Below, piece by piece: positions 3,809 to 26,333 of a DNA stretch of 26,333 bases. The stretch is from the IMG/VR virus record IMGVR_UViG_3300047382_000135, positions 1 to 26,333 of that record, one strand, 5' to 3'. A program made the position numbers and the translations under genes. The stretch's first letter is position 1. Every line of letters starts with the position of its first letter. A model generated the notes under the pieces. It saw nothing but the letters and a program-made list of their open reading frames with translations. It was not told the origin of the DNA and did not search any database. The DNA is from a virus. Taxonomy: Duplodnaviria > Caudoviricetes.

Positions 3809-4174
3809 TTATCTAGTTACTCCACCAGTAACAGTAACTGTACCCTGAACGACACGAGTTACAGTATTGTTACCAGACACTATCTCAACGTCATAAAGAT
3901 ATCTGCCGGGTTCTATAGAATTTGTTCCAACCTGAGTTACTGTAGTTCCGTCAACAACATCCGAATTGGGTAGTGACAAAGTAATGACACCGCCTTCACT
4001 ATTATGAGTAGTGATAAACTGTGCAGTAACTGTCGCTGTTGCATAATTTTTACGCATCTGACCCCTAGTGGTGTATCCACCAAGATTGAATGGTTGATCA
4101 CTAGAGTCTAGAACATCAACTGTTGCTGAAAAATCTGAACCCTGATCGATTGTTAAGTTTGCTTTAATTGCCAT
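3809..4174 (-). CDS. Small conserved virion beta-sandwich (BppU-N/Ig-like adaptor-type) protein, 121 aa
   Basis: Pattern NLTIDQGSDF...NLGGYTTRGQMRKNY...GVITLSL...TNSIEPGRYLYDVEI...TRVVQGTVTVTGGVT is typical of small structural proteins near gp13 in marine T4-like phages; GGAGA SD; late promoter ~28 nt upstream. Confidence 0.75.
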   Translation of the reverse strand: MAIKANLTIDQGSDFSATVDVLDSSDQPFNLGGYTTRGQMRKNYATATVTAQFITTHNSEGGVITLSLPNSDVVDGTTVTQVGTNSIEPGRYLYDVEIVSGNNTVTRVVQGTVTVTGGVTR

Positions 4175-4199: not shown

Positions 4200-4215
4200 G
4201 TTATTTATAAATAAC
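4200..4215. promoter_or_regulatory. Bidirectional T4 late promoter: two overlapping TATAAATA boxes in a perfect 16-bp palindrome
   Basis: GTTATTTATAAATAAC is self-complementary; TATAAATA at 4206-4213 (+) and 4202-4209 (-). It lies in the 74-bp gap between divergent ORFs starting at 4174 (-) and 4249 (+). Confidence 0.88.
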
Positions 4216-4248: not shown

Positions 4249-7200
4249 ATGGCTAACAGAAGATATATAAAATTTGGTCTTAGAGCAGATAAAAATCTAA
4301 TCGATCTCGGTAATACCGCAGAAGCAGTAGATAATCTAATAGACGGCTTGGCTGTAGGCTCAGACATTTTTGGAAATCCATATCGATTCACTTCTGTAGA
4401 TTTAGCACCATTAAGAACTCTTTCATCAACAGACTTAGGTGCAATTCTTAATCCGACAGATAACTTACCACAAATTCTAAGAAATTTGAGTGGTTCTGTA
4501 AAAACAATCTCTTCAGCAGAATTAGATTCAGACCTTATCGATGTTGTTGGTCAGTTGGTAGTACAGCCACAAGTAACGCTTCAAGACAGAATAAACAGGT
4601 TTAAATCTGTTCTAGGTGATCCACCATTCATCAGCGGTGGCTCAGGACCTTATGTTGAATATGTACACCCGATTAGACTAACACAATTCACTGGTGCTTA
4701 TGATGATCTATTAATCAACATTAAGCCTTTCACACAAGCGAGTGATATTGCTAACGGAACAGATCAAACTGAAAATAGAGATTTAGTTATAGGCGACACA
4801 TATAAAATAGTCAATCTTGGCGACATTACTAACGATGAGTGGAATGATATAGCGGACACTACTAGTGTAACCTATGGCGTAGGCGATGTTTTCGTTTGCG
4901 TAAACAACGCCTCAACTCAAGTTGGGCACGACACAACAGCGATTGTTAGAGATGTGACAACTCCGTCAGGTAACTTTGCTACTTCTATATCTGGTCAAAA
5001 AGCAGACACGCTTCCCGCAAAATTCTTATTTACTAAAACCTCTGCTAGTAATTATCCACCATCAGTTATTTCTGAAAACGACTGGGAAAACGGAAATTTT
5101 GAATGGGACGGTCCTATCAATAGAACATTCATAGCACAGGGTGGGTTGGTTCAGTTTAATGCATTTCAGGTTGGTGGATTCAACCCACAGATCGAAACAA
5201 ACGGCCTACTTTTAGTTGAAGAAAATGTGACTGAACAAAGTGACGGTTGGAGATTAGTAAAAGGTACAAATACCTATAACTTTAAGCCAGTATACAGCAC
5301 TACTGTTGCGACAGTAAATGAAAGAACTGTAATCACTTTCTCCAATAAAGACGACTGGAGAAGGGTCGCCAGATATATGAGTTGCACCATAAATGGACAA
5401 GGAGATACAGTAATCTCCGAATCTAGTGCAGGAACAATTTCTCTTGGAAGTGATCTTCAGATAACTGACTCTAATGCTGATATAGAATTTTCTTATAATG
5501 AAAGTGCTGTTGTAGAGTTTAATTCGTTTGACTTCACTAGACCCCCAGGAGATACTCGAAGACAGGTAAGATATAGCGTTTGGTGGCCTAGTGGATATGG
5601 AGAGAACTACTCCAAAATCTTTAGGGACTCTGGAGATAGTGGATCAGATCCTTTCAATAAACTAAACTTTTACAAAGAACAAAGAGATTTACTTTTCTAT
5701 AGTAGAAAATTTAGCTTTCCATATTTTAGGGATAATAGAATATATGAGTTAAATCAAACAGGCAACACAAAAGTAGAAGTGCAACACACTTTCTTAAATA
5801 GATATCTAAATCCACAGGTTCCGACTAATCTTTCTATATTAGAAAGCCCAAACATTTTTCCAAGAAGTACAGGTAGTGGAGCAACTGTAGAATCAATTCC
5901 TGTAAAAGTATCTGACGATGGCACAATAGAATCAAGCATCGAAGTATTTCAGGATTTTGAAGTTGGTGATTGGGTGGTATCATCAAGAAATGATGGAACA
6001 CAAAGATATTACGCATATCAAATAATTGAAAAGATTGGCGAAGATGATGAGATATCGGGAGATAGTACTAAGACAAAAGCGTATGTATCTCCGCAATATT
6101 TACAGCAAACAGGCATAGCCGCTGATACTTTACATCATGTTCTTTTAGCAAAGAATCAAGGATTAATTGCTATCTACAATTCGTTTCAGGGCACAGATGC
6201 TGATGCAAATAGTGTAAAGAAAATCAAAATACTAGACTATACTTCTTTAGATTCTCCATCTAGACCCTATAGTATCAGAGCAGAAGATATTATATACAAA
6301 GTAGATTTTGTCCCAGCAAATCCATCAAACACTTTGGCTGATGCAGTGGTTTCAAATAATACTCACAGATATGGTATGAAACTCACCGAAATAGACCATA
6401 ATGACTCTGCTACACCAGTAGAAGCTATATTTGATGTAGAGTCCAATCCTAGTGACTCTTCAGGGTATACATTATCTACTAATCAGGGTGTGGCTTTTGC
6501 TTATGCATCAAGAGGATTGATAGACAGATCAACCCTTCAAGAGTGCGTAGATGTTTACGGTAAAGAAGTTACGAATAATGTTACTGGTACAACTGCAATA
6601 GAACTCAACAACGTAACAGGTATTACTCCAAGAAGTTCTGCAACTGCAATAACAAATGTGGTTATAGGTACAGATGGTAATATATCATTTGATCAAATGG
6701 ATATGAAGCATGGAGATCATATTGTAGTTTCTGGTACACCAACTGGTACAGGCGATATTACTGGATATACAAACTCTACGACATATCTTGTTGACGAAAT
6801 AGTCACAGGTAATTCGCCAAATATTAGCGCAATTAAATTATCTGAACTTAACGGAGATGTATTAGTAACAACTAGTGGAGACTCTGCCGGGTTAACATTT
6901 AACTTACATACTACTGGAGACTTTGCGTTTTTTGAGGGAAAAATTCCATATAACATCGATAATATGGTTCAAGTAGGTACAGTAAATAGTGGGAACAACA
7001 CGATAACATTGGTTGACTATAATGGTACAGCAGTATCTTTAAGTGGAACTTTAGGAGCAGGTGGCACTGTCGTATTTGCGCCTGCAGATGCAGGACCTGA
7101 TGCTAATGGATGGGATAAGCTGAATAAAGAATACTGCATCATTCCTTTGAATACTGCGCCGCCTTGGGAAGGTACTACTCTAGGCCTAAGAAGTCCAGTT

Positions 7201-7356
7201 GGAGATGTTACCAATAAACCTTTGAGCGTTCAGGCAAAAGAACTTAGATTTGTCAAACTATCTTTCACTGTTCCTACAGTTAATGTAGAATCTTATGTCG
7301 AAGATGCTAGTAACAGAACACAATTCATGAAGGTGAAGTATACTCCACCAACTTAA
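4249..7356 (+). CDS. Large putative virion/fibre-associated protein (1035 aa); the only + strand gene
   Basis: Long acidic, T/S/G/N/D-rich ORF behind a late promoter. N-terminal GLRADKNLIDL..AVDNL anchor-like motif; one copy of the dispersed module (4780-4899); small beta module near 6660-6845. Confidence 0.8.
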   Translation: MANRRYIKFGLRADKNLIDLGNTAEAVDNLIDGLAVGSDIFGNPYRFTSVDLAPLRTLSSTDLGAILNPTDNLPQILRNLSGSVKTISSAELDSDLIDVVGQLVVQPQVTLQDRINRFKSVLGDPPFISGGSGPYVEYVHPIRLTQFTGAYDDLLINIKPFTQASDIANGTDQTENRDLVIGDTYKIVNLGDITNDEWNDIADTTSVTYGVGDVFVCVNNASTQVGHDTTAIVRDVTTPSGNFATSISGQKADTLPAKFLFTKTSASNYPPSVISENDWENGNFEWDGPINRTFIAQGGLVQFNAFQVGGFNPQIETNGLLLVEENVTEQSDGWRLVKGTNTYNFKPVYSTTVATVNERTVITFSNKDDWRRVARYMSCTINGQGDTVISESSAGTISLGSDLQITDSNADIEFSYNESAVVEFNSFDFTRPPGDTRRQVRYSVWWPSGYGENYSKIFRDSGDSGSDPFNKLNFYKEQRDLLFYSRKFSFPYFRDNRIYELNQTGNTKVEVQHTFLNRYLNPQVPTNLSILESPNIFPRSTGSGATVESIPVKVSDDGTIESSIEVFQDFEVGDWVVSSRNDGTQRYYAYQIIEKIGEDDEISGDSTKTKAYVSPQYLQQTGIAADTLHHVLLAKNQGLIAIYNSFQGTDADANSVKKIKILDYTSLDSPSRPYSIRAEDIIYKVDFVPANPSNTLADAVVSNNTHRYGMKLTEIDHNDSATPVEAIFDVESNPSDSSGYTLSTNQGVAFAYASRGLIDRSTLQECVDVYGKEVTNNVTGTTAIELNNVTGITPRSSATAITNVVIGTDGNISFDQMDMKHGDHIVVSGTPTGTGDITGYTNSTTYLVDEIVTGNSPNISAIKLSELNGDVLVTTSGDSAGLTFNLHTTGDFAFFEGKIPYNIDNMVQVGTVNSGNNTITLVDYNGTAVSLSGTLGAGGTVVFAPADAGPDANGWDKLNKEYCIIPLNTAPPWEGTTLGLRSPVGDVTNKPLSVQAKELRFVKLSFTVPTVNVESYVEDASNRTQFMKVKYTPPT

Positions 7357-9693
7357 TCACATCACGAGAACTTTATATATTCCGTCTCTTACATCTGCTT
7401 CGTCTGCATACGCAAGCAACTGATAAGATTCACCATTTACTGTTATGGGTATCATATGGGTAAAGTTGTTGGTTAGGAATTGAGCATTGTTTGTAACAAT
7501 ATCTGCTCCATCTACAATGCTAGTCTGATAAAGATTCTGTAATCCATTTCCGTTTATGGAATCTTGATTAGCATTAGTAAATAAAAGTTTTGGTTCACCT
7601 ACAGCTTCGCCACCAGTACCACTCAATCCATTACCACTATGTGTTGCTCGGAAACTATCACCGACAAGATAGGATACTCCAGTTGTTCCAGATACGTCAT
7701 TCCAGTCAGTATTGTTGTCTCCAACATCGGTAATAATGTAGCTTTCACTTACAACAAAGTTGCCCCAAGTAGTGACATCTTTTCTGTCGAAAATAAAGTC
7801 GCCCGCCTGAGCAGTATCAGAAGTTGTCTTTAGGGCAGGAACATTCAGTGTTCTACTTCCAGAAGTGCCAACTACACCAGGCTTATTAGTACCACCAAGC
7901 GTACCATCTAGCGTGTAGTTTGTTTCTACTGAGCCGGGAATATCAAGATTGTTAGATAGTGAGCCAGTGGCTTCTTCAACTTTCTGCCAAGGATTGTCTG
8001 TACCAGTAAATGCTCTTTTTGCTTCACCATTAGCTGGGTTTCTAATATATAATCCAACACTATCTACAATTAGTGCTGTAGAGCCAGTATCTACACTACC
8101 ACCTGCTGTTGTTGCTTTGAACACTATATGTTTCACTATAGCGTTAGATAGTGAGCCACCATGAGTCTGAGCAGTAAAGTAGGTACCTCTTACTACAGGA
8201 ATACCTTGTGATCTTGCAACATATGTAACCCCAGTTGAACCTACTATTGCATTCCAATTGGCTTGAGGATTAGTATCAAGTCTATATTCTCCAACTTGAT
8301 TTGACACACTCATGGCCATGTCTACTTGATCTTGATCTACATCACTAGAATTTTTAGACAGCTTTATCTGAGTACTGTTTACCACTTTAACATAGTATAT
8401 TGTTTCTACCATGTCTCCTGTAACGCCATTGTCTCCTATACTTTCACCACTAATTCTAGTATAGAACACTTCGTCACTATCAGAAAGACCATGTGGACTG
8501 TCAAATGTTATCGTGTCATTTACGTCATCGACATCATCAAATGAAAATGATAAAACTCCTTCAACACCAATACCAGTTCTGTATCCCAAATTTATTATTT
8601 CATATACTTCTCCTGGTATAATATTTCCACCAGTAATTTCTGGAGATTCATACTTTGTTATAGAACCTACACTCTCCCAAGAAGAAGTTCCAAGTTTTAC
8701 AACTTTATATATCTCACCTGCAACAAGGTCTCCGAAATTAGTTTCAACGCCGATCTTTCTGACTTTACCTGCGGCGTTTTGATTGTTTACTACTCTAACT
8801 CCACCGTCAAATCTTACACCAGAGTCTAATTTAAATATATTAGGAGAGTATCCGACAATCACATTAGCCTTCTTAACTTCGACACCTGAAATATTTTGAT
8901 CAAGTATCGCTAGTTGCCCAACACCACCACTGGCGGGGTCAGTGTCCCAAGGGTCGGGAGAGATTAGGACTATAGTCTCTTCATTAATTTCGCTGAAGCC
9001 ACCGAATAGCTGATCTTGTTGCCCCAATGACTCAACGTGAGCATTTTTTAAGTTTTCTATGGTAATTGTATCATCTCTGGTCAACGTAAGTGTGTCAACA
9101 TTACCCGGAGTATTCCCATTAGCACTTGTGGCAAAGTTAAAAGCTGGTCCTGTTGGGTCGGAAATAGGCGCAAGTTGAAATCTAGATACTGCATCACTAT
9201 TTACTACGATGTAATCATAATTTGATCCACCATCAATAGACAGTAGTGTACCTTCAGTAAATGCGATTCTAGCTATTCTAGGTCTTACTACTAATGTCCA
9301 ACCATCTAATGAATCAAATACTGCATCAAATTCTCTTTTTGGGGATATCTCTATTGCAAGTCCACCACTACCTGTCGAAATATCTCCTTCACCTGTAGCA
9401 GTAAAGATTTCATTTACGTCACCAGTACTTGCACCTATAGAAGTCCAACCTCTATCGCTTCCAGAGTCAAATATTTTATAATTTTTATCTTGCTCGAAAC
9501 TTCCGAACTGAACAAGCTGTCCTTCAGCAAAAGGATCATTAATGAGCCTAGACCTGTGCTGGGTATTTCCACTAAAAAGTTGTAAATCGCCAGAGACTCC
9601 CCCATCTTGCACGAGATTCGTTAAGATTAGCCTATCTGAATCTGGTGATGCGCTTTCTCTTAAATTTAAACTTGTTACGAAACCTTGAGCCAT
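7357..9693 (-). CDS. Large putative virion/fibre-associated protein (778 aa) with four copies of a short repeated module
   Basis: Long ORF with GAGG SD. Repeats FEQDKNYKIFDSG..W, LVAGEIYKVVKLG..W, IIPGEVYEIINLG..W and FVVSESYIITDVG..W; HGL..YYV..IKL small beta domain; C-terminal FTHMIPITVNGESYQLL. Confidence 0.8.
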   Translation of the reverse strand: MAQGFVTSLNLRESASPDSDRLILTNLVQDGGVSGDLQLFSGNTQHRSRLINDPFAEGQLVQFGSFEQDKNYKIFDSGSDRGWTSIGASTGDVNEIFTATGEGDISTGSGGLAIEISPKREFDAVFDSLDGWTLVVRPRIARIAFTEGTLLSIDGGSNYDYIVVNSDAVSRFQLAPISDPTGPAFNFATSANGNTPGNVDTLTLTRDDTITIENLKNAHVESLGQQDQLFGGFSEINEETIVLISPDPWDTDPASGGVGQLAILDQNISGVEVKKANVIVGYSPNIFKLDSGVRFDGGVRVVNNQNAAGKVRKIGVETNFGDLVAGEIYKVVKLGTSSWESVGSITKYESPEITGGNIIPGEVYEIINLGYRTGIGVEGVLSFSFDDVDDVNDTITFDSPHGLSDSDEVFYTRISGESIGDNGVTGDMVETIYYVKVVNSTQIKLSKNSSDVDQDQVDMAMSVSNQVGEYRLDTNPQANWNAIVGSTGVTYVARSQGIPVVRGTYFTAQTHGGSLSNAIVKHIVFKATTAGGSVDTGSTALIVDSVGLYIRNPANGEAKRAFTGTDNPWQKVEEATGSLSNNLDIPGSVETNYTLDGTLGGTNKPGVVGTSGSRTLNVPALKTTSDTAQAGDFIFDRKDVTTWGNFVVSESYIITDVGDNNTDWNDVSGTTGVSYLVGDSFRATHSGNGLSGTGGEAVGEPKLLFTNANQDSINGNGLQNLYQTSIVDGADIVTNNAQFLTNNFTHMIPITVNGESYQLLAYADEADVRDGIYKVLVM

Positions 9694-9705
9694 TTCATTT
9701 CCTCT

Positions 9706-12700
9706 TTACGGCAATTGATCTAATTGGAATGACCAACCACGTTGGACAAGAACAGTATACTTATCATTAATCGCCGAATTACCGGCTTGTTGAAGCCACG
9801 ATAGATTAAGTCTGTTTCCGCTATCTGGAGTCTGGTTATAAAGTCTGACAGTAATATTGCTATTACTACTTCTAGCATTTGAGTTTAAGTATAGATCATT
9901 AATTATAGGACCTAAGTGGTAGTCATTTAATTTATTATCATTCATATAGAATTTCTTACAATATACAGCAGTAGACAAACTCCCACTTGTATAGCCATCA
10001 AATAGATTATTATTAACTGTGTAAGACTCACATGAATTCACGCCACTGATATCAGGAAGAGGCCCGCTGAACTTATTATCTGTCACATTAAGTGTCGCAA
10101 ATTCATCACTACTTTGACTGAATACAGGAAAGTCACCTTCCATGTTAGTAATCCTAACACTAACATTTCTTAGTTTTTCCATATCCTTTATTTCATTATT
10201 GGTATCTGTGATAAATTCACTCAATCCTTGAGAAATCAACGGCTGCATACATCTATCTCTCACCACCTTACCAGTGCCGTAATCAACAGCAGGATCAGTA
10301 TTACCTGCAACCCCAGTTCTTTTCATTACGACTGTTCCATTATTAGTAGTTGTGAAACTACTAGTAGTACTGGTTGGATTGAATTCTTGTTTCCAATCGG
10401 TATCGTCTACTCCGCTAATAGTAGAATCCATTCCCTGAATGACAGAAAGATTTGATGATGTACCACTTCTTATAAAGAGATAGTTGCCTCCGGCTACACA
10501 CCCTGTCAGAAAGATTCTATTTGCGGCAGAACTGGCTTTAAACGTGTCGCCCTTTGCTGGGTTATTTCCTGTTACATAATGACCCCACTCACTAGCCCCT
10601 CCATTTGGGATGTAGTTGGCTACCCAACCCATGGCTTCCCATTGTGCCTTTGTCGAGCCTGATGGGTCAACAATTACATACTCTTGATCGTGTATACAAG
10701 TGTTTATATCTGGGTCTTGATATTCGAACCAATCTTCTTCCTTTGGTTTTCCTGTGCTTCCGCCTGCAACCAAAGTACCTCTAGATGTATTATCTCCCCA
10801 ACTTACAAAATCAGAATTTACGTCAGAACCGCTCCACCCCATATCTTCATACTCTTGAAACGACATAGAATGGTTTCTCTTGGAAGAAATAAACCCAGCA
10901 GGTCTCCATCCCTGAATAAAATCTGATCTCGGAACAGCAATGTCCATATTTTCTGCCACCTGATAATTCTTACCAGGAGTAATTGACTGATTTGGATCGA
11001 CTAATCTCCGAAGACTACTTATCGTTACCTTTGACATTTTCTCGCACCCAGATAAATTGGGGAACCTACCATGCACATGACAACCACTTACGGTTATCGT
11101 GCAATCAGTACTCTGTGTACCAGTAGGATTAGGGTTCCATGTTTCAAATTTAAGAGCATTTATCGGTGGTTGTACGGTTTCGTTGATTAAGTATCCAGAC
11201 CCCGCAGACCCAGTCAATATTACAACACATAGTCGAGGGTCTGATCCTGTTTGATCTGGTAAAATATTTCCCTGTCTTGCACTGGTGCTTCCATCAACTG
11301 CAAACTGATCATAATTAAGGGCCTCTCTATATAAATAAACTGAGCGAGAGGTGCCGGTGCTTTGGACATCATAGAAGTCGAACTTTCTTAGCTTAGAACA
11401 ATCTTTTAAAAAGTTGCCATCAAGAGTAAGTTGAGCATATGCGGCAGGACCGAAGTCTAATGTTTGTAACTCTGTCTGACCATGTAGTAAAGTGGTCGCA
11501 TCTCCCCACATAGTTTTATCTAGATCAGTTGATCTTCCATTGGCACTTGCGCTTGCATTATTACTAGATGACATATGTACAATCATAGTTTCAAGTTTAG
11601 TAGTAGTGTTTAGACCACCAAACATATTTTGCTGAGACAACTCCCTATCTTCAAGCCTATAACCAAAACCTATGCTAGTATTAGCCCCAAAACTAAGATA
11701 TTTTAAGTTGGGCATATCATGAATGTTAGGAACATGGGTTTTGCAACCACTCAAGCCCAATGATTCAAGATTCGCTTTATTTTCAAATTTGAACTTTCTA
11801 TCTTCATTACTGATGTCCATAGTAGTAGCGTTTGTAGTATCGACAAACCTATAATCAGCAACACAGTCTGTTCTGAATGATCTATTCGATGTCGAACCAG
11901 TAGGACCCCACTGAATTAGGTTAGTACTGTTTAAATATGCAATAGGAACGAATCTATAATCTACATAGTCTGGATTATAGATTTCAACGCCTCTACCTGC
12001 CTCGATGTGCAGTTTATTGTTAACATCATCCCACTTTTCAAATGTGTGAAAAGTGCCTGTATCAGCCGCTAATGTATATGATGATATAACATTACCTGCT
12101 CCATACGGGCTTTGTCTCAGTTTAATAGTATTCAAATCTACTACTTCAACCTGCAAAATATCATTTCTGCTAAGAGGAGATAGTTCTTCACACAAGGTTC
12201 CTGCAAGCATAGTACTGTCTTGACCACCAGTACCGACATTACCACCACCCATTACAAAATTTGGATTATCTGGTGCTACCCTATTTTTATATCGAACTTT
12301 GTCACCACTCACGAACCTGTGAGCAACAAAAGTAAATTCTCCTGTGCTTGGGTCTAAAACATTCGAGTCAGTTGGGTCAAATTTTAACTTATAATTAGGA
12401 TCATAAACGGCGGGTGCTACACCGTCACCACCAGTCTGTAAGTTAGTCGTTGACCCAGGGAATGAAGTCTCACCAAAGTCAAGATTAACCAAATCTGGAA
12501 ATCTTTCATAGCTTATATCGAGATTACCCGGCAAATCTTCCCAAGACCCTAGATCATTAATTGACTCCATTGAAAGTGGCAATCTCGCTAGTTGCTCGTT
12601 AGGTGTTCCTGTATATCCAGTGACAAACTGAAGTTCAGCAACTTCGGCGCTATTAGGTGCTAGGCCTAATTTGTTATTGGATAAATCAATGTGTTTGAGA

Positions 12701-16700: not shown

Positions 16701-17669
16701 GTCAACAATTTTATTATATTCCCGAAATCCCTTGTAGCCATTTTCTTGAACCTGAAAGGTATTCTCGTTGCTAAAATTCGTCATTGTTGGATAGCTGTCT
16801 GTAGCAGACCGAATTTTATCCCAAAAAGCTGTCCATCTTTCTATAGAGTCAAAAACGCCTTGAATATCATCGTTGACATACTCGACATCGAAAAAGCCGT
16901 CTGCCATAACTTCCATTCTAAATTGTAAGGGACCATCGTTGATAATAAGATCGTAGGCGCCCAGTGTTAATGCATCACCAAATTGATTTACGATACGAAC
17001 ATCTTCTATTCGTAAAAAATTGTTTTTTGCAAATCTTCTACCATCGGGACCTTGAGCAGAGAACAGTCTATATAAATGTATTCCAAGTGCTATAAATCGC
17101 ATATAGCGTTTAAACTTTGCAGTAGGCTCACTTCTTTTTTCGAAAACTGTTCCGTAAGGAAAAGACCATTGACTAGGAAATGCTTTTAGGTATAATGCTT
17201 GTTGATCGGACCCCTCGTAAAACTTTACGTTTGATCTTCTACCAAAGACTGGGTGCTTTTTCGTATACCATTCTGGTGGATCATTTCTATGACTACTGTA
17301 GATATCAGAAGCATCCCAATTATCTATGTCTAAACCATAAGTCGCAACATCAGAAAATAAACTTAATTGCTCTTCTGCTCTAGCAACACCTAAAAGAGAA
17401 CTACTGACTTCAGAAACTTCTTTAAATTGCTCTACGATTGGAATGGCGCCGCCACCAACTTCTGCAGGTTGGCTGCCGTCATTGTTAACGTGAACCGATA
17501 ACGAATTTTGCGATAAAGTGAGGCTCGTTAAAGCCGCACTTTCTTCGGTTACAAGAGGGTTGCCCGCATCATCAAAGAGTAGCGTTCCCTCGATATCTAC
17601 CAGTTGCTGAAACTGCTTTGTGACTGGTGCCGGAGTTTTGTCCAGACCAATCTTTATCTTTCTGCTCAT
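13737..17669 (-). CDS. Large putative virion protein (1310 aa), paralogue of 17673..22325
   Basis: Shares ordered blocks with its neighbour: SLLGVARAE, SKRTFRYQPGR, VTMYKIEFSWYGAIGA..AYIPVGNG..RWV, YIDGGDEGTIRL and C-terminal VTSKEQ. Confidence 0.82.
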   Translation of the reverse strand: MSRKIKIGLDKTPAPVTKQFQQLVDIEGTLLFDDAGNPLVTEESAALTSLTLSQNSLSVHVNNDGSQPAEVGGGAIPIVEQFKEVSEVSSSLLGVARAEEQLSLFSDVATYGLDIDNWDASDIYSSHRNDPPEWYTKKHPVFGRRSNVKFYEGSDQQALYLKAFPSQWSFPYGTVFEKRSEPTAKFKRYMRFIALGIHLYRLFSAQGPDGRRFAKNNFLRIEDVRIVNQFGDALTLGAYDLIINDGPLQFRMEVMADGFFDVEYVNDDIQGVFDSIERWTAFWDKIRSATDSYPTMTNFSNENTFQVQENGYKGFREYNKIVDMIQTKEALPGKDTDENYTGDEYYGILQSKRTFRYQPGRASGFTFGSRMIAGGQGAIAEWGCSNDTDEYMFQLQGERLSLVRRSTIKMPDELLQRQGISPLKQTKSYMPGIKSEETREIWETIIERTDFTGDPLDGTGDTRYALSFEDVTMYKIEFSWYGAIGAKFYAYIPVGNGDCRWVLMHTFVIENGLGQPVLENPDFRFKYLLYTNFTEDIKQPIYLYKFGSSCYIDGGDEGTIRLNSESSPQKPFQSRTSMIGIMPKEVLKNSKGVPKLNFKKIYPSSLSVSSDTAAKLTFEEIAGTSQGVHFHYSPSIHMDGVHPKNRTVALSYRLDESDSSVANGVNMVSATNSRQLIQFDDYQGNPITPTALKFGVTATNGSDSITHPQSSTAGFGNNYKGLQVGDSLSIGGNEYVIKSFKNGSTVVYVSSSDTDGLVLETPFSGVTNSYEATLVYRFQPSDHMAHIIADGVYGSYVDTLENLGDLYGRGDDPDYSKPEYSIIPRTATNSEKVDESVFSYTQLAGTAPESFLARLNSYRTVVASKTPVYANKFKIHFLNPQIKDKGLDYDVSGNDSDLWYKHFGEFSVGVTPYLPTETGDATNRPANKVDDHEVLFKVGASSSYDCVEYDRTRFPSIEYSHATRDYDQNKKLEIKENDTLYGNRLQIDPRLDRRENRIQGSDRGIASTVSCEVTVNDYRYDSVTGPVIVDGRQVSVVKFSSDPSNSPPPAGVIEPGISEVGFQFVGRSLVYRSDLIEYAAEDQEVLNQGSDAEVRIVAAILIDYDPTFQSQIANMTPENRNIQSKTITITDDWKPFAVDSSGRRLFDDQRFTVSRAVSFNDAQPLYPVFALGDYAHVNGVVVEEILEQGVVRTHTPEFVIESSSLNPNVSIANSGGSNSLNSSSAFNDNADMASSRYDITNSNPLRPGVELYSCYVGENETVTVDLENIFSRDRKGITRGSLNNRAVYLTASSLDGSIGSMQLSVTSKEQ

Positions 17670-17672
17670 AGA

Positions 17673-20600
17673 TTACTGCTCTTCCCATGTCACACCCAAA
17701 CTTATTCCATCTCCGCTAGCCGCAATGTTAGTATCTGAATCAACGGCAAAGTATAGAGTATCTGCTATATCAGTAAGAGGAAACGACAGATATTCTTTGT
17801 TATAGTCAAAGTAAGTTGCTAGATCAAACTGCTCTGTTCCCGCCCTTAAATATGTAGTAGCAACATTAATTCCAGTATTTGGAATTGGTACTACTGGATT
17901 GGTTGCTATCTTAACAGAACTTAATCCTTCTTTTTCATAAGAAAACTTAGTGTCGCTCGATGTTGCTTCAACACCACTAGCTAAGAATTTTTTATCTGCT
18001 AAGAAACTTCCACCAGAAGCTAGAACAACGGCTCCCTCATAACTTTCTAAAAGTTCAAAATAATACTGATCAGTATCTTTATATAGTCTACCAAATACAG
18101 TCAAGAACTCAGCACTAATTCTCGCTCTGAACCAACCATAGGTTTCTTGACCATTAGCCAAATAGTTAGCACTTCCGGCTGTTACTGTTAGTGGAGTATT
18201 TGTATTATCCACTGTATACTCTGTATTTAATTCGAATGAACCAGTAGGAGTAACATCAGTCTGGAATAAAGGAGTTTTCTTAAATCTCAATCTCACTGGG
18301 TTGCTACCAATATTGGCAGAAGAAAGTTTAGTTGGATATACCTGAACTCTATTTCTAACTGCGTTTTGCTCACGAGTACTTAGAATAGTTTTCTTGGTTT
18401 CGATTCCGTAAATTGTTGTCGCTCTATCTGGAATAATTTTGATATCCGCCGCCGCACCTTGTATTTGACTAGAGAGATACAGTTTACTTCCATCAATCCA
18501 AACCACCTTAATGTTAGTGTCAGATAGGTTACCAGTTTTTATCGATGCTCCCATAAAGAACTCGGCATCTTGATAGGTAGAACCATCAACAGTTATATAG
18601 TACAGACTACTACCTGATCCAGTAAATGATTCTTGAGTGGTGGTGTTAACAGATGTTGATGGGAACTGCTTTCCAAGAGCATCAATAACAGAATCATTGT
18701 TATGAGAGTACAGACGAACAGTACCTCGGTCACCACCATCGATGTAGTATGAAGCACCATATTTAACAATGTGGTGTGAGGTTGAACCATAGCCCTGTTC
18801 AACTGCCACAGCAGGCACATCTTCCCCATCACCTAAACAATACGCTGATCCACCGCCATAAGTTGTGTATGTAATAGGCAATGTTGCGTTACCAAGAGAT
18901 GCAATCTTCAACTGATTCGATGCTCGTAAGTGATGTACTCTTACCCATCGTGCTTCACCGTTACCAACAGGAATGTATGCTAAGAACAATGCACCTACCG
19001 CACCATACCACGAGAACTCAACTTTAAGCATCGTTACTTTTGTAAAATCAAAATCATATTCACTGTTCTGGAACTCTGCGATACCTAATGTTTCGAAGAA
19101 ATTCTGACCTGGTCTGACAATAGTATTAGTGCCTGCTGAGTTCAAGCCAGTTACAATATCACTATAGACACGCTTTCTAGCACCAGGATTACCTGCACTC
19201 TTAGCGGCCGCATTTGATTTAATGCCATCAAGAGCATCATGACTGAATCTTGAGCGAGGAATACGATACTCGTAAACACCCCAGTATTCTGGCTTAACAT
19301 TATTCTTAACCCAGTTTACATATTCTGGATAGAAGTTTACGTTATCAATCTGTGATCTAATTCTATCAATATTAAGACCACCGTCAGAAGCATTTGGATC
19401 AAGAGAGGTATTAATGAATCCAACATAGTCGCCTACGTTTTGATTGATAGTACCTGTACCCATATTAGCATCAAGTAGATCGTCTGTCACGCTGTACATA
19501 TATGGGAACATGGCGCCAACTGGAGTAGCCCCAGTATTAAACTCTGTTCCGAAAGTTCTAAACTGTCTTTGATCGCCTTGATCTCCACTATCACTCGCAT
19601 CGTTAGTCAATGTAGCATAAGTGGTATCTATTTCTGATACATGAACAACATTTGCCAATGATCCTTGACCAGGATTAATTGTATCGAGATCATAATCTTT
19701 AGGGAAAATGAATGGTACAACTGTTTCAAAGAAGAATGTACCAGTACCCGAGGCATCATCTATATCAGCTTGTTCTATTGATACTAATTGATACTCATAG
19801 TTATTATCTTGATTGACTACCTTGTTTGCTTTTTGAAGCGTGAACTCGTTACCCTTAGGTCCTATAACTCTTCTTACTCTTAGAACTTCTCCGTTATATA
19901 TTTCTTCTGTAGTTGCGCCGTTGTCCACTATGGTAATACTAGGACTATCACCAGTCCAGTGTATCTTAACGTGCTGACCAAAAGTTACATTACCTTTAGT
20001 TAGCTTAAATACAGTACCTACTTGGTTTGCTACATTAGTAGTTTGTACGCCACCAGTTGCTACTGCTTTAATCTTCTCAGCATCTTTCAGTAAAGAGGGG
20101 TCATAGATAGCCGCATGAGTATGAATCAACCCATCTCTTAATACGACCAAGTTGCCTGGAAAAGGTTTAGAGCCATTTATAAGAGTATTGGTGTTTTCAT
20201 TATTAAAGTTTGTAACAATCAGCTCGGAAAGTTCATTAAACGATCCGCCGTCACCAGAACCACCATGAACTGATTCGTAGTTTGTCTGAACCCCGTTATC
20301 CGCACTATCGAATGCCTTGAGTTCTCTGGACATTAGAGTTTTTAGATATTCATGTCTCTTGATTTCGGAAAGAGTTGCTGTACCATCACCGTTGAAGTCT
20401 TCTTTTTGCGAATATACTGAAAGTCCAGTACCTCTCGTGAACATAGAAGCATTGTATGTGGTTTCAGCATTGCCACCACCTAGAATATCGTTTTTATAAC
20501 CATCAATTATGTAACCAACATCACGCTGACATTTATCTGCGATTAGTTGTTTTATTCTATCATCGCCTGCGGCACCTAGATTCCTAAACTGGAATAATTG

Positions 20601-22325
20601 AGTAGCAGAATCAGCACTACTAGTACCAAAGTTAGGCTGGGTGTAGACTATGTTTTCATAAATCTCTGCACTCGCACCAGTAACGCTTAAAGGTGAATTG
20701 TTACCGCTGAATACTCTACCCACATAAGGATCACTAATTGATAGAGAGTTCCAAGTGTTACTCATACTAGTACCGACACTTTTGATAGTATACTTTTTAT
20801 CACTAGAAAGAACCATGCCGTTTGCCAATGCAACAGGGGCTTTTTTAGTGGTTACGAAGTAAGACCAGAAGTTTCTTTTAACTTCAAAGAATGTTTCCAA
20901 CTTATCTTTAGTTCCGTAATCAATGGCATAAAAAGTAACGCCAGAGACTGCCGAAGGTACTGCTGTGGAATTAACATTAGCGGGTACAAAGGTATCTGAA
21001 TAATTTGAGGCAGAAGCATCATCAGAGTTACCAAATGAATTTGCGACTATTGTTTGCAAAGCAACCAATCTATCTTTTGCCGAAGTGCTTAGACCATCAG
21101 TAGTATGAATACTCGTGAAGTAATCTAATAATGCCTTATGGACAGGTGCTTCAAATATACTAATTTTTGGGAATACTCCAACATTATGCAAAGGGGTTTC
21201 CCATTCGTTTCCAACCTGCGAATCTGCCAAGGCAAAGTTTGTGGTATTCCATGCAGTGTGTGCATTACCACCAAACTCTAAATCTAGTAAGAAGTTATCT
21301 ATCCAGTAGTCTAGATCACGTTTACATTTTGCTTCCATCTTTGCGGCATCTAATAGGTTTGGATATCCAACAGACTGATTGAATGCTGTTGCCAAATCGG
21401 CATAATAAGATGTGTTAGTTGCTAGAATAGATGCACTAGTAGTACCAGAAGTCCAACCCTTTTTAATACCAGTCAATGTCTGTGGAGTACTTAACAAAGC
21501 ACTACAGTGTGCGGCATGATTTCCAACAACACCTGCTAGTACACTATCAACAATTTCAAATCTTTTTTCAGTAAGTATTTTTCTATCTGTTTCTAATACG
21601 CCTGTATAATCTTCTGACTCACTTTTACCATAACCAACAATTCTATAGTCATCTAACTGAGTGTTAGATAGCTTGGTCGGAGTAGCAGATGCTGTGTTGG
21701 ATTCACCTCTCAATTTAGTCTGCTGACTAATACCATATGGACTAACAGCACCATACTGTAATGACTGTGTTCTTCTTACCACAGAGAAGTTATCTTCCTT
21801 ACCACTGTTTCTAGTTTCCCAGTAGTAACCATCATACTTATCGTAAATGCCGTACTTACGAATAACTGGATTTTGAGCAAAGTCTGCAATAGACACAGAA
21901 CTCTTAATACCAAACGTAGCCGCAGATACACGACCAGGTTGATATCTGAAGAAACGCTTAGAGGTCAGTACTGCTGTTTTATTTCGAGATGCTTCCACAA
22001 GCGCACCGGCTTCAGTTGGAAGATGCGCTACACCATCGCCCGAAATATGATATGCAGGTTTCATTGACCACTCTGATGGGTTAACATCATAAGTGTTTAC
22101 ATCAGCGAAGATACCGAGTGCAATCTCTGCTCTGGGTATACCCAGAAGCGATAGAGCAACTTCAGACTGAATCTTATTCTGTTCGACAACAGGGATAGAA
22201 GTCTGGTCTGATGCCATTACGACAGGAATAGACTTAGATGCAGGTTGTGCGCCAGGAGAAACTGGAGTCGTTCTGCCTACATTTACTACTGCTGAATTTA
22301 TGTTAGAATTTGTTATACTTGACAT
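17673..22325 (-). CDS. Large putative virion protein (1550 aa) with RYQPGR/FSWYGA core and two phycobiliprotein-like helical repeats
   Basis: Core blocks SLLGIPRAE, SKRFFRYQPGR, VTMLKVEFSWYGAVGA..AYIPVGNG, YIDGGDRGTVRL, VTWEEQ; internal KCKRDLDYWID..GGN and KCQRDVGYIID..GGN; AGGA SD overlapping the upstream TAG. Confidence 0.82.
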   Translation of the reverse strand: MSSITNSNINSAVVNVGRTTPVSPGAQPASKSIPVVMASDQTSIPVVEQNKIQSEVALSLLGIPRAEIALGIFADVNTYDVNPSEWSMKPAYHISGDGVAHLPTEAGALVEASRNKTAVLTSKRFFRYQPGRVSAATFGIKSSVSIADFAQNPVIRKYGIYDKYDGYYWETRNSGKEDNFSVVRRTQSLQYGAVSPYGISQQTKLRGESNTASATPTKLSNTQLDDYRIVGYGKSESEDYTGVLETDRKILTEKRFEIVDSVLAGVVGNHAAHCSALLSTPQTLTGIKKGWTSGTTSASILATNTSYYADLATAFNQSVGYPNLLDAAKMEAKCKRDLDYWIDNFLLDLEFGGNAHTAWNTTNFALADSQVGNEWETPLHNVGVFPKISIFEAPVHKALLDYFTSIHTTDGLSTSAKDRLVALQTIVANSFGNSDDASASNYSDTFVPANVNSTAVPSAVSGVTFYAIDYGTKDKLETFFEVKRNFWSYFVTTKKAPVALANGMVLSSDKKYTIKSVGTSMSNTWNSLSISDPYVGRVFSGNNSPLSVTGASAEIYENIVYTQPNFGTSSADSATQLFQFRNLGAAGDDRIKQLIADKCQRDVGYIIDGYKNDILGGGNAETTYNASMFTRGTGLSVYSQKEDFNGDGTATLSEIKRHEYLKTLMSRELKAFDSADNGVQTNYESVHGGSGDGGSFNELSELIVTNFNNENTNTLINGSKPFPGNLVVLRDGLIHTHAAIYDPSLLKDAEKIKAVATGGVQTTNVANQVGTVFKLTKGNVTFGQHVKIHWTGDSPSITIVDNGATTEEIYNGEVLRVRRVIGPKGNEFTLQKANKVVNQDNNYEYQLVSIEQADIDDASGTGTFFFETVVPFIFPKDYDLDTINPGQGSLANVVHVSEIDTTYATLTNDASDSGDQGDQRQFRTFGTEFNTGATPVGAMFPYMYSVTDDLLDANMGTGTINQNVGDYVGFINTSLDPNASDGGLNIDRIRSQIDNVNFYPEYVNWVKNNVKPEYWGVYEYRIPRSRFSHDALDGIKSNAAAKSAGNPGARKRVYSDIVTGLNSAGTNTIVRPGQNFFETLGIAEFQNSEYDFDFTKVTMLKVEFSWYGAVGALFLAYIPVGNGEARWVRVHHLRASNQLKIASLGNATLPITYTTYGGGSAYCLGDGEDVPAVAVEQGYGSTSHHIVKYGASYYIDGGDRGTVRLYSHNNDSVIDALGKQFPSTSVNTTTQESFTGSGSSLYYITVDGSTYQDAEFFMGASIKTGNLSDTNIKVVWIDGSKLYLSSQIQGAAADIKIIPDRATTIYGIETKKTILSTREQNAVRNRVQVYPTKLSSANIGSNPVRLRFKKTPLFQTDVTPTGSFELNTEYTVDNTNTPLTVTAGSANYLANGQETYGWFRARISAEFLTVFGRLYKDTDQYYFELLESYEGAVVLASGGSFLADKKFLASGVEATSSDTKFSYEKEGLSSVKIATNPVVPIPNTGINVATTYLRAGTEQFDLATYFDYNKEYLSFPLTDIADTLYFAVDSDTNIAASGDGISLGVTWEEQ
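20469..21329 (-). repeat. Two diverged protein-level repeats, KCxRD[LV][DG]Y[WI]ID-x4-D[LI]xxGGNAxTxxN
   Basis: KCKRDLDYWIDNFLLDLEFGGNAHTAWN (core 21264-21329) and KCQRDVGYIIDGYKNDILGGGNAETTYN (core 20469-20534) align without gaps. Confidence 0.85.
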
Positions 22326-22334
22326 TTATTTTTC

Positions 22335-25300
22335 CTATTTAATAAGCCCTGATGCTAATACAAAATCATCCATTATATGTATATATCCATTTTCGGCGGT
22401 AGTTCCAGTTACTAATACACTTGAATCGATTGGACTGCCTGAATCAGCACCATAGTATCTGATTACACAAAGTGTTGTTGTTTGACCTAAGACTGGAGTC
22501 ATTTTCCACATGAACCCATTATATGGATTGAGTGTTACGTTACTACCTGTGACATATGGATTAAATGCTGTTCCTCTTTTAAACCTGACATGATCACCTT
22601 CTTGAACATGATCAATCTTGTCTATTAATACAGTGAAGTCAACAAAATACCTATTCGCATTCATTGGATCGTTGATTGCTTGCCCGTTTACATTATTACC
22701 GACATTCGGAATATTAGAGGCATCTGAATATTGAGCAGGAGTCTTTCCGTTGGCATCTAGTTGACCATGTTTAAAAGACCCATTATCGGTAGCAATACCA
22801 CCAATGAAACTGTCGCCCTGCTTTTCGCCCGCTATTGAATAATATCTATAACTAGCAGACCATTGAAGAGCAAAGTGCTTAGTCCCGAAGTTATGTATTC
22901 TACCTGCTGTAACATCAGAAAGAGACTGCTTTACATGACTCGCATACATATTTTTAAGTGCAGTTGAAGTATAGGCTCCAGTTGAGTCATCTGTAAGATC
23001 AGTATAAGTAGTATGATCTGTACCATCTTCTATTCTAAACTGGAATTCACCATTAGTTTTATCAGTACCACTAAGATCAGTAAATGCTAATGGAGACTTG
23101 CGAGTACCGCCATCTGTGGTGTAGCCTGTAAATTCTCTTGCATGAATCGCACCAGAAGTAGCTGAACCGAACGACTGAGAAGTTCCATTATATACAAACT
23201 TTGCGCCTATTTTATTTACACAGGCTCCCCACTCTGTCCAGTCAACATCTCCAACTTGAGATATTTCATACAATCTATCTGTTCTTAGATTCTGGTATGT
23301 AAATGCTGTATTGTTTGCATCAGTAATTCCAGGACCTATGCCCCTACCATATACATTATGATCTCCATCAGTATCAACATTAACTGCATCTACTCTATAA
23401 ATTAGTTCGCCAGGAGTATCTTCAATGTTGTCAGTAAGATTGCTGATAGAGTTTTGGGTTAAATCGAATACAGATGGAGTAGGACCTTCTTGATACACCA
23501 ATGGATCACTAGTGAACGGAGAACTTTTTACTATTGTCTGTCTAAGTAGATTAATTAAATCGAACTCGCTATTCAATATATCTGGCGTAGATAAAAACTC
23601 GTTTGCTGGGCCCATAAGAACATTCGGGCTACTAACGATAAATCTAGAGCCATAGATATCTAAACCAGTACCAACATTCTTAATAACATTATTCGCAAAA
23701 ACAGACTCTTTACTAACAGTTGCATCAACATTTGTAGTAAAGTTTTGTATTACATTTCCTGTTAGCATTGTGTTCTCACCAGAGTCTACGATCAATGGGA
23801 AGAAGTCGTGTCTATCTGTCAAACCACTATTAGAGATTTCGGAAAGACTCATTTTGAATCTTAGCGGAATACTTGCAAATATTCCATCACCAATAATGTT
23901 TTTAACCTTACAATTATTTACTGTAATGTCTGTGGATGTGTTACCAAAGTCAATGAATCTATTTCTAGATTCACCAAGATGGTATTGATTTAACGAGTTT
24001 CCGTCAAAATCTACACTATCCAGTGTAACATTTTTAGCATTATCACCAGGTATATCTATCACACTATTCGTAGCATTTATTCCGTCTGGATACCCACTCC
24101 AAGGCAGTTTAGTGACTTTCGTCATACCCAAAACACCGATTAGACCAAACTCAGATGGTAAATTAATCTTAGTGACATTATATGTTTTTGCATTAATACT
24201 TAGACTTTTAATTTTGTTGCTAATTTTTGTACTTATTCCAGTATTAATTTTGCTTGTATCATTATGAGCAATACTAACAGTGTGTCCAAATTGACCACCC
24301 ACGTTATTGACGAAAATTGGGTTATTTGGATTTAACACTATTGTAAAGAACTGTGTTGGGTCTGCCTCATTTACCTCAACACTTGTTATTTCAGCATCTA
24401 TCCAACCCCTGAATGTTTCATTTTGACCGGTCACCTCACCAACGTCAGATGGTGTTACTGGCAATTCGGCGGGGAAATGGATAGTCTTATCTACTGGATA
24501 TGTATTATCTGCTTCAATCTTATCAGACCATGCCGCATAGTCAAAAGTATAATAGTCTTTCCATAGAGGTAAGTCAATACCACTAACAACAGAAGCTAAC
24601 TTATATACACTTTCGTCAGCCTGAGTAGAAGTTTTTCTATACACTAAGACTCCCTCGGTATCACTAACAACGCCAGCAAGGTTGAAACTAATATAGTTAT
24701 CTCTACTGAATGATTCATAAATGTCATTCGCATCGGCATTACCATTAACACTTATGGTCGCTGTGTATGGCTCACTTCTAGGACCTACTTCGCCGGTAGT
24801 TAGATTAAACTTAGCAAGTACATATGTGAGAGTAACACCAATATCATCAGTCTCGCCAGTGTTGAAACCACCTAGATCACTTATTAAACTTGCCGATGTA
24901 ATTTTACTGGGTGAGTTTAATAACGAACTACTAGAACCACCATAAATTCTGATAACTTGACCCGGACTAAATGATGTTGAATCGGGCCCACCTTGAGCAG
25001 AACTAGGGACTTGTAAAACAGTACAATTCTGGTTTGGATATGTTCCGGCGAGATTTTCTTGTCGCCAAGTTGCGCTTACATTTGTTAAACTAGGAGAGGT
25101 GTTACCATCATCAAAGATGTCACTATATGTGTTAAACAAGTCTCTAAACTGATCTTGAAGTGCTAATTCTACAGATTCTGCACTAAAGTACAGATTTGTA
25201 CTACCCTCTCTAATATCATCTGTAGTAATTACGCCTTGATTTGGTGCGCCTGATTGATCTTGTGGGTTTCCGATACCAAGTTCTAAACCATTTGCGCTAC

Positions 25301-25688
25301 CAAAATTGATTTTCTTTATATAACCTTCACTGTTAGCTATCTGACTATTCTGAGTAATAGCTATAGGCTTATTACCCCCAATATTAGAGTAATCTAAAAG
25401 TTGTTCTGGTGTTTGATAACTTCCATTTAAGAATAAAGTTGCGGCACGAACACCGTTAGATACATTGGCGGCACCATTAATTGCTGCCTTTAGATTTGTT
25501 AAATTATCTCCAGACAGAACACTAGTACCCGTACCAGATGCATCGAAAGAATACATATACCGTGATATGTTTTCCGCAGTTATCTGTTTACTATTTTGTT
25601 GAGCATTGAGATCATCAACGATAGCAAATATATCATTATCTGAAAGTAATGAAGTAACCGGTAATTCTGTAAATTTTTTGTTAGCCAT
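22335..25688 (-). CDS. Tailspike/fibre-like protein (1117 aa) with a right-handed beta-helix (pectin-lyase-like) region
   Basis: N-terminal MANKKFTELP..LSDNDIFAIVD fibre-type start; TTDDIREGSTNLYF motif; beta-helix-like coils NVTLDSVDFDGN, DITVNNCKVKNIIGDGIF, NTMLTGNVIQN, SVFANNVIKNVGTGLDI (~23625-24270); AAGGA SD. Confidence 0.75.
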   Translation of the reverse strand: MANKKFTELPVTSLLSDNDIFAIVDDLNAQQNSKQITAENISRYMYSFDASGTGTSVLSGDNLTNLKAAINGAANVSNGVRAATLFLNGSYQTPEQLLDYSNIGGNKPIAITQNSQIANSEGYIKKINFGSANGLELGIGNPQDQSGAPNQGVITTDDIREGSTNLYFSAESVELALQDQFRDLFNTYSDIFDDGNTSPSLTNVSATWRQENLAGTYPNQNCTVLQVPSSAQGGPDSTSFSPGQVIRIYGGSSSSLLNSPSKITSASLISDLGGFNTGETDDIGVTLTYVLAKFNLTTGEVGPRSEPYTATISVNGNADANDIYESFSRDNYISFNLAGVVSDTEGVLVYRKTSTQADESVYKLASVVSGIDLPLWKDYYTFDYAAWSDKIEADNTYPVDKTIHFPAELPVTPSDVGEVTGQNETFRGWIDAEITSVEVNEADPTQFFTIVLNPNNPIFVNNVGGQFGHTVSIAHNDTSKINTGISTKISNKIKSLSINAKTYNVTKINLPSEFGLIGVLGMTKVTKLPWSGYPDGINATNSVIDIPGDNAKNVTLDSVDFDGNSLNQYHLGESRNRFIDFGNTSTDITVNNCKVKNIIGDGIFASIPLRFKMSLSEISNSGLTDRHDFFPLIVDSGENTMLTGNVIQNFTTNVDATVSKESVFANNVIKNVGTGLDIYGSRFIVSSPNVLMGPANEFLSTPDILNSEFDLINLLRQTIVKSSPFTSDPLVYQEGPTPSVFDLTQNSISNLTDNIEDTPGELIYRVDAVNVDTDGDHNVYGRGIGPGITDANNTAFTYQNLRTDRLYEISQVGDVDWTEWGACVNKIGAKFVYNGTSQSFGSATSGAIHAREFTGYTTDGGTRKSPLAFTDLSGTDKTNGEFQFRIEDGTDHTTYTDLTDDSTGAYTSTALKNMYASHVKQSLSDVTAGRIHNFGTKHFALQWSASYRYYSIAGEKQGDSFIGGIATDNGSFKHGQLDANGKTPAQYSDASNIPNVGNNVNGQAINDPMNANRYFVDFTVLIDKIDHVQEGDHVRFKRGTAFNPYVTGSNVTLNPYNGFMWKMTPVLGQTTTLCVIRYYGADSGSPIDSSVLVTGTTAENGYIHIMDDFVLASGLIK

Positions 25689-25721: not shown

Positions 25722-26333
25722 TTACGATACTCGTACCCAATATGCGACAACGACATATGACTGCAATATGCTGAACGACTTACCTGAACCGGACGTTGAG
25801 GTTGTTTGATCTGAATAATTTAGTGTAACCCCATTACTACCCTGAGTAACTCCATTAGCCGCAGATTTACCACTTTTCTTAAAACTACGACCTGCTCTAA
25901 TTCTATATGTATGACTGTGAGCGGGTAATTGACTAGCACCTAAAGTAACTTTATCAGCGCCACCTTTAACTCCAGTAAACTTACTGCCGCCAAAGTTGAT
26001 TTCTTTTCTGTATGGACTAAAACCAGATGATTTAGACCCGTCACCACCTACAAGTGTTTTACCCTTACCAAATCTGTGCCATGTACCCGCAGACAGATAG
26101 GTATTTGGATCATTATCATTAGCCATACAGATTACTGAGCCTTCAGGCCACATATTGTCTATATGAACAAATCCTTTAAGTTCCGCTTCAAGATTCGAGA
26201 TATCACTGAGTGTGTGCGTATGCGAATTATTTTGAACTTTACATGATAGACTCGCCGCGGCATCACCTCGAATGTTGACCGACCCCGTAACATCTCCTGT
26301 CAGGCTCAAAGTTCTTGCTGTTGTCCACCTTCC
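25722..26333 (-). CDS. C-terminal part of a short tail fibre / baseplate protein with a T4 gp10/gp12-like C-terminal domain (5' end outside the window)
   Basis: The frame is open to the window edge (GRWTTARTLSLTGDVTGSV...NNSHTH, a common fibre repeat), so the ORF-track start at 26309 is not real. The C-terminal domain follows the gp10-C pattern: WPEGSV..DPN...GTWHRFGKGKTLVG...GGADKVTL...PAHSH...ILQSYVVVAYWVRVS. Confidence 0.8.
   Translation of the reverse strand, partial: GRWTTARTLSLTGDVTGSVNIRGDAAASLSCKVQNNSHTHTLSDISNLEAELKGFVHIDNMWPEGSVICMANDNDPNTYLSAGTWHRFGKGKTLVGGDGSKSSGFSPYRKEINFGGSKFTGVKGGADKVTLGASQLPAHSHTYRIRAGRSFKKSGKSAANGVTQGSNGVTLNYSDQTTSTSGSGKSFSILQSYVVVAYWVRVS

Follow-up and report, generated by a model that had tools for sequence, protein, structure and literature searches.

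The 26,333-nt stretch analysed here (positions 1 to 26,333 of IMG/VR record IMGVR_UViG_3300047382_000135, from a virus of the Caudoviricetes; hereafter the window) contains a cassette of six giant genes, A to F, whose products very probably form one virion apparatus. Our reading, to which we give a probability of about 55%, is that the cassette encodes a single apparatus for host attachment, placed at the virion's tail end, and that protein E likely carries covalent bilin, probably produced by phage HemO and PcyX. On the evidence of sequence profiles and a structural model, the two phycobiliprotein-like domains of E probably bind bilin in vivo, and the pigment is somewhat more likely to be a shield than a switch. 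New here are the cassette common to T4-like and TIM5-like lineages, the location of the domains inside a predicted lectin-fold subunit, and the exceptions to the coupling with bilin genes. The six open reading frames (ORFs) were verified at positions 4249-25688, as follows.

Gene A, 4249..7356, plus strand: 1035 aa; convergent on B; N-terminus in common with C.
Gene B, 7357..9693, minus strand: 778 aa (309-835 in relatives); compact core with small repeated modules inserted.
Gene C, 9706..13737, minus strand: 1343 aa; N-terminal segment in common with A, then leucine-rich repeats.
Gene D, 13737..17669, minus strand: 1310 aa; phrog_1645; predicted ConA-like beta-jelly-roll core (GH16/lectin fold).
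Gene E, 17673..22325, minus strand: 1550 aa; assigned to phrog_1645 (virion structural protein); paralogous to D; two phycobiliprotein-like inserts in the core common to D and E.
Gene F, 22335..25688, minus strand: 1117 aa; middle part predicted to form a right-handed beta-helix (tailspike-like).
Phycobiliprotein-like domain 1 of E, 21021..21599, minus strand: aa 243-435; motif C334-K-R-D.
Phycobiliprotein-like domain 2 of E, 20181..20903, minus strand: approximately aa 475-715, into which a small beta module is set; motif C599-Q-R-D.

Together the genes encode 7,133 aa, with intergenic spacings from A to F of 0, 12, -1, 3, and 9 nt, in agreement with the initial annotation, which had described about 7,100 aa of tightly packed giant ORFs. 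Gene A lies on the strand opposite to B-F, a point that the initial annotation did not mention, and the stops of A and B abut. To assess conservation, relatives were picked by a scan with E, the best 80 of 161 stretches giving 57 loci, including the window's own contig; neighbors were assigned by position and checked by phmmer against the window proteins. The assignments were confirmed for F in 47 of 52 cases, D in 44/44, C in 43/43, B in 26/41, and A in 34/38, and gene A was inverted in all 38 loci that reached its position. The five unmatched F positions (L050, L052, L054, L059, and L060) are occupied by proteins of 2,352-2,663 aa with a similar C-terminal motif; E has no pigment inserts in those of these loci that were tested, and one of the contigs, G038, has psbA. 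Family profiles, which include the tested rows, labeled all six genes in each of the 33 loci spanning F to A. A pick by alignment of A gave 50 other loci, in which B came next in all 47 with room for it (20/20 on new contigs), and B, C, and D followed in exact succession in 27/27 old and 12/17 new loci, the remaining five having an extra small ORF or an early end. Both sets of loci, the one found through E and the one found through A, keep the order F-E-D-C-B><A. An assembly artefact or an invertible segment was considered for gene A and ruled out, because flanking inverted repeats are lacking and the orientation is the same in all relatives.

The same layout of five genes plus one, including the inversion, is found in the cultured cyanomyoviruses S-TIM5 and S-TIM54 (TIM5-like, Aurunvirus; AEZ65691-AEZ65696 in S-TIM5), where all six genes are labeled virion structural in GenBank. 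Profile homology covers all six genes in S-TIM54 and five of the six in S-TIM5 (in S-TIM5 the E-values are 4e-31 for F, 8e-213 for E, 2e-163 for D, 9e-31 for C, and 1e-13 for A), the match to the gene B profile being significant only in S-TIM54 (9e-8). Unlike the window phage, the TIM5-like phages are not T4-like and have no phycobiliprotein-like inserts. S-TIM5 was reached by profiles only: a tblastn search of 50,697 phage records with C, A, and F gave no match, and single-sequence scans with C or A returned only the window's own contig. E is split into two ORFs in S-TIM54 (L003:20025-23278), as is D in L017 (14156 onward), either a real split or sequence error. The suggestion that the six genes occur together in synteny is upheld to the extent that they form one conserved unit across relatives and TIM5-like phages, but the siphovirus S-CBS4 has D and E homologs without the other four genes, among tail and fiber genes. 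This counts against a single six-protein apparatus. The putative virion membership of the six proteins is taken from the GenBank and PHROG labels of their homologs, which agree with the earlier view of them as virion components. No description of a function for the cassette, or of a function or structure for its TIM5-like counterpart, was found in the accessible literature, the scope of which left out subscription papers and supplements.

The phycobiliprotein-like domains are internal inserts of the 1550-aa protein E, inside the ConA-like core region common to D and E, and are not stand-alone phycobilisome subunits of the kind that assemble with linkers into alpha-beta rings. In a 54-row alignment, the Cys, Arg, and Asp of the domain 1 motif are each present in 43/43 non-gap rows, and the Cys of domain 2 in 42/43. 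When the domain 1 profile was searched against the PDB, all 36 matches up to an E-value of 10 were phycobiliproteins, the best (3e-4) being phycocyanin alpha, and a broader domain profile gave 43 phycobiliproteins among 44 matches (best E 1.6e-6). The CxRD of the E domains aligned to alpha-Cys84 of phycobiliproteins. In a model of E residues 240-722 (pLDDT 81, pTM 0.86), the top eight VIA rows were phycobiliproteins (Z 7.5-9.9), followed by photocobilin (7.0) and other globins. Domain 2 matched the large family profile at 2.5e-13 and resembled globin-type chains in fold, though less strongly (Z 5-6). The domains are thus alike to phycobiliproteins (PF00502; phycocyanin alpha, allophycocyanin, phycoerythrin, and ApcE) in their predicted globin-type fold and CxRD motif, but differ in being embedded in a giant phage protein, in falling below the Pfam cut-off, and in that their pigment binding is a prediction. 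None of the 36 members of set A1 reached the PF00502 gathering score, a copy of the domain in a neighbor gene scored 16.2 bits against a cut-off of 22.2, and a single-sequence PDB search with E 230-770 gave no match. The match begins at approximately residue 30 of phycobiliprotein subunits, the N-terminal helices of which are dimerization helices and appear to be absent from E.

Several points weigh against a pigment-bearing attachment apparatus. The profile match spans only the N-terminal half of phycocyanin alpha. The best VIA match of domain 1 (Z 9.9, root-mean-square deviation [rmsd] 2.9, 125 residues aligned) is within the chance range of helical folds, at 11-17% identity, and Foldseek found no significant match to the E model in the PDB. 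Cassettes in S-TIM5, S-TIM54, and four IMG/VR contigs (G031, G033, G034, and G038) do not have the domains, and for this reason we regard the pigment domains as optional inserts and not as the cassette core. Bilin binding, virion location, and complex formation are what we infer from sequences and models.

Beyond the cassette, the domain family comprises 1,308 clusters, with up to 36 copies in one protein. The CxRD motif is intact in 1,479 of 1,555 copies from the best 150 proteins, against a background Cys frequency of 0.7%, and per-residue conservation in the family is 97% for Cys, 97% for Arg, and 99% for Asp, with the middle residue free and a second Asp at 100%. A repeat-type query from a neighbor gene matched 169 phage records, all but one (168) named as cyanophages, in which the domain lies in tail, baseplate, and fiber genes under labels such as tail fiber, short tail fiber, gp7, and structural protein. 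S-PM2 has nine copies of the domain, P-HM2 three, P-HM1 a tblastn match, and P-SSM2 none; S-PM2p088 (L250:28492-38508) has five CxRD copies, and P-HM2 gp7 (L252:1-9683) is also domain-bearing. Proteins P0001-P0003 are 4,800-6,400 aa long with 30-36 tandem phycobiliprotein-like domains, and their N and C termini resemble those of a 1312-aa protein adjoining the cassette in contig G054. Phycobiliprotein-like virion domains are not described in the accessible literature, although the supplementary alignments of PMC10151467, which lay outside that scope, could contain phage globins. A known parallel is provided by the globins BBAG-1 and BBAG-3, for which the accessible part of PMC10151467 reports that CXRD is the bilin attachment motif, that binding is lyase-free, and that the genes co-occur with heme oxygenase and bilin reductase. 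In bacteria, BBAGs exist as proteins in their own right, in clusters with pre-PcyA genes, whereas the E domains are inserts in phage structural genes approximately 35 kb from hemO-pcyX.

Genes for bilin synthesis were found in relatives of the window phage. Three cassette carriers (G009, G044, and G054) encode pcyX 35-36.5 kb upstream of E; the G009 protein matches 5OWG at 3e-67, and G044 and G054, recovered by way of PcyX, both have hemO beside pcyX. Among 40 carrier records, a bilin reductase was detected in one (G009) and heme oxygenase in none, a result that is uninformative for the 38 contigs among them, since only G009 (pcyX) and G038 (psbA, without the domain) reach 35 kb upstream of E. 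Five further carriers gave no reductase, and the four of them with the domain end short of 35 kb upstream of E; neither bilin reductase nor heme oxygenase was found in S-TIM5 or S-TIM54. hemO lay within 72 of 80 pcyX loci. In loci picked by gp32 (80 loci, of which those with at least 4.5 kb upstream were used), pcyX or hemO was present in 12 of 15 close relatives (at least 65% identity) vs. 2 of 15 distant ones (Fisher p 7e-4, the samples being related). Conversely, the domain is present in 10 of 33 PcyX contigs (those of at least 20 kb among 80 PcyX loci, the query's own excluded), in several of them in unrelated proteins of 800-2,600 aa. In a more distant phage group, loci L220, L221, and L223 encode, close to gp32, a divergent bilin reductase that shares approximately 30% identity with PcyX; L220 and L223 also have hemO.

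The correlation with bilin-synthesis genes that the initial annotation proposed as a check is borne out in part, by PcyX in three carriers and by the domain in 9 of the 12 PcyX contigs above 50 kb, a proportion drawn from PcyX-bearing contigs only, several of them near-duplicates, with no pcyX-free comparison set. It fails in Mosig, P-SSM2, and the TIM5-like phages, and the link is not strict, with exceptions both ways. Upstream of E, the contig of the window itself extends for only 22.9 kb, so that a pcyX for this phage can be suggested from relatives only, and three of the 12 large PcyX contigs have no domain. No phycobiliprotein-like domain was detected in the genome of pelagiphage Mosig (MT647606.1; L064:19454-21532) despite its hemO-pcyX directly before gp13, in a run of structural genes, nor in P-SSM2, which encodes bilin reductase genes (PMC2984593, accessible part). 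All of these points, together with the make-up of the 9/12 sample, count against a phage-made pigment on E. Near hemO-pcyX, Mosig also has a ferrochelatase-like gene.

These exceptions in both directions (Mosig, P-SSM2, and S-TIM5) would be expected if the domains were a pigment-free scaffold or mimic, with Cys-Arg-Asp serving a structural or disulfide role or binding a host protein and hemO-pcyX acting on host metabolism. Tandem arrays of up to 36 copies do resemble a structural repeat, and no CpeT lyase was found in the five contigs searched. Such a scaffold is nevertheless unlikely: conservation of Cys, Arg, and Asp around a free middle residue, with a second Asp at 100%, is the pattern of a chromophore site, BBAG-1 and BBAG-3 bind without a lyase (PMC10151467), and the cultured phages in which the domain was found are nearly all ones whose cyanobacterial host provides bilin, while elsewhere it was found with PcyX.

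If E does carry bilin as part of an attachment apparatus, its formation and use could proceed in four steps. The genes would be expressed late from two opposed promoters. The lectin-fold paralogs D and E, a beta-helix spike formed by F, and A, B, and C, which would contribute a common N-terminal helical segment, conceivably the basis of a trimer, and, on C, the leucine-rich repeats, would then assemble into one structure binding host surface glycans or proteins. HemO would cleave host heme and PcyX would convert the biliverdin to phycoerythrobilin, which may attach without a lyase to Cys334 and Cys599 in the manner of the BBAG-1/3 globins. The last step would be the use of the pigment by free virions in sunlit water, its likeliest role being to shield them from light or oxidants or to act as a stabilizing ligand. 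In phycoerythrobilin, the product of PcyX, the double bond on which photoswitching relies (C15=C16) is missing. It is on this account, and because the BBAG holoproteins tested were photoinactive (PMC10151467), that a shield or stabilizer is favored over a switch.

Both considerations also tell against a light-gated adhesin, in which bilin would absorb light and switch the lectin-fold E subunit so that adsorption takes place only in light. The domains do sit inside the ConA-like core region common to D and E, and their distribution follows the adsorption phenotypes given in PMC6628666 (accessible part; S-PM2 cited there from Jia 2010): domain-bearing S-PM2, P-HM2, and P-HM1 adsorb light-dependently, and P-SSM2, with no copy, adsorbs in the dark. 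The same source holds that the effect is independent of host photosynthesis and may reside in tail fibers. This is anecdotal, however, comprising four phages, all cyanophages and none with this cassette as far as tested, and P-SSM2 adsorption is also reduced in the dark. The gating of adsorption by light that the initial annotation put forward is not established, the pigment domains being missing from the six cassettes listed above, and we consider such an adhesin improbable. We hold as equally doubtful the broader idea that marine phages build pigmented virions in which bilin on tail domains, self-made through HemO-PcyX or taken from the host, is an extracellular light sensor gating adsorption; if true, it would account both for the presence of bilin genes in phages and for the dependence of adsorption on light in cyanophages such as S-PM2 and P-HM2.

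The novelty of the favored reading, a host-attachment apparatus bearing bilin on E, lies in the pigment-bearing virion, which we infer; the cassette by itself would add a further form to the attachment structures of phages. Two questions are addressed: why phages of hosts without phycobilisomes carry hemO-pcyX, raised in the discussion of PMC11480375, and what underlies light-dependent cyanophage adsorption without host photosynthesis (PMC6628666). The hemO-pcyX, pebS, and pcyA auxiliary genes treated in PMC11480375 encode the same enzymes in this phage clade, and its accessible text assigns them to host physiology or leaves their purpose undecided, proposing no virion acceptor. Were a virion protein to accept bilin, these "auxiliary metabolic genes" would become morphogenesis genes, and bilin-binding globins would gain a large branch. 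Both questions are testable with cultured phages and simple biochemistry, and S-TIM5 is a ready model for cryo-electron microscopy.

The leucine-rich repeat, beta-helix, lectin-like, and phycobiliprotein-like parts named in the initial annotation were all recovered by profiles or predicted folds. Leucine-rich repeats in C match PF12799 (E 2e-9), and PF13229 was found in 10 of 32 members of the F family (best E 7e-11), the window's own F being unmatched. The model of a 1102-aa D homolog (L043) has a pLDDT of 84, and the comparison of its core with GH16/lectin jelly-rolls gave a match (Z 14.5, rmsd 3.3, 215 residues aligned) that places it among ConA-like folds, the fold evidence covering essentially residues up to 524. 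Foldseek with this model returned mostly long spurious alignments (rmsd approximately 30), only the lectin/GH16 rows being credible. The GH16 catalytic motif, which we take to be E-x-D-x(x)-E, is present in none of 35 D proteins and is absent from window D and E. A jelly-roll core without this motif in 35/35 makes a binding role for the predicted D/E core more likely than hydrolysis. In the PDB, the D and F profiles found no match and the A profile weak ones only; an Atlas search led from D to unnamed viral clusters, and with the E domain gave no match. The earlier claim that the six proteins are cross-linked stands for the D/E paralogy (BLASTP E 7e-20), the N-terminus that C has in common with A (91% probability and E 1e-6 by hhalign), and a small module common to A and B (E 1e-5), with a motif match also in C, but the likeness of B to A and to C is weak (probability 28% and 5%). 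A small module of approximately 40 aa (Tyr-x-Ile...Gly...Trp) is repeated as an insert in A, B, and C, as are FCCH-like barrels, and these inserts seem to explain much of the length variation of the three proteins among relatives.

The flanks of the cassette are T4-like, and the following features adjoin it.

Adaptor-like gene, 3809..4174, minus strand: phrog_1084; directly after the cassette in many, not all, relatives.
Palindrome of 16 nt, 4200..4215, both strands: T4 late-promoter consensus TATAAATA on each strand; between gene A and the adaptor-gp13 operon.
gp10/gp12-like gene, C-terminal part, 25722..26333, minus strand: Gp10_C PF21939, E 4e-19; 735 aa in a longer contig.

The palindrome was identified with TATAAATA, which we take to be the T4 late-promoter consensus, and the motif is found on both strands near the start of gene A in 12 of 16 relatives with complete A. 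Pfam and PHROGs matches identify the genes beyond A as the phrog_1084 adaptor, gp13, gp14, gp15, terS, and terL; in the longer contig of the same phage, gp25, gp6, gp7-like, gp8, and a VrlC-like gene lie upstream of the gp10/gp12-like gene. The cassette therefore does lie where it had been placed, between a gp10/12-like gene and the adaptor-gp13 genes. This position just before the adaptor-gp13 genes, and the two-way promoter in common with them, would suit a neck or collar appendage replacing fibritin and controlling fiber deployment. We consider this very unlikely: A is often separated from gp13 by other genes, or the cassette has no adaptor after it; the interval is variable in general, S-PM2, HTVC008M, and P-HM2 having different giant structural genes between gp8 and gp13; the predicted folds are of receptor-binding types; the cassette is present in non-T4 phages; and the D/E pair of S-CBS4 lies among tail and fiber genes. 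The proposed analogy with T4 fibritin (wac) is thus weak, the likeness being one of position between baseplate genes and gp13, with six globular multidomain proteins in place of one coiled-coil protein and no sequence match. No family match to fibritin or its foldon was found in Pfam or PHROGs, nor did the profiles of D, F, and A find one in the PDB, no coiled-coil predictor having been run, and cyanomyoviruses generally have no wac (PMC2984593).

The best gp13 matches of the window phage are to phages of the Stenotrophomonas DLP6, Melnitz, and phiM12 type, and psbA was not seen in the close relative G054 (67% complete); the host is likely a heterotroph. Window gp15 (891-2096, 401 aa) and gp13 (2793-3761, 322 aa) exceed the length of the profiles they match and contain inserted segments, and gp14 of relatives reaches 517 aa.

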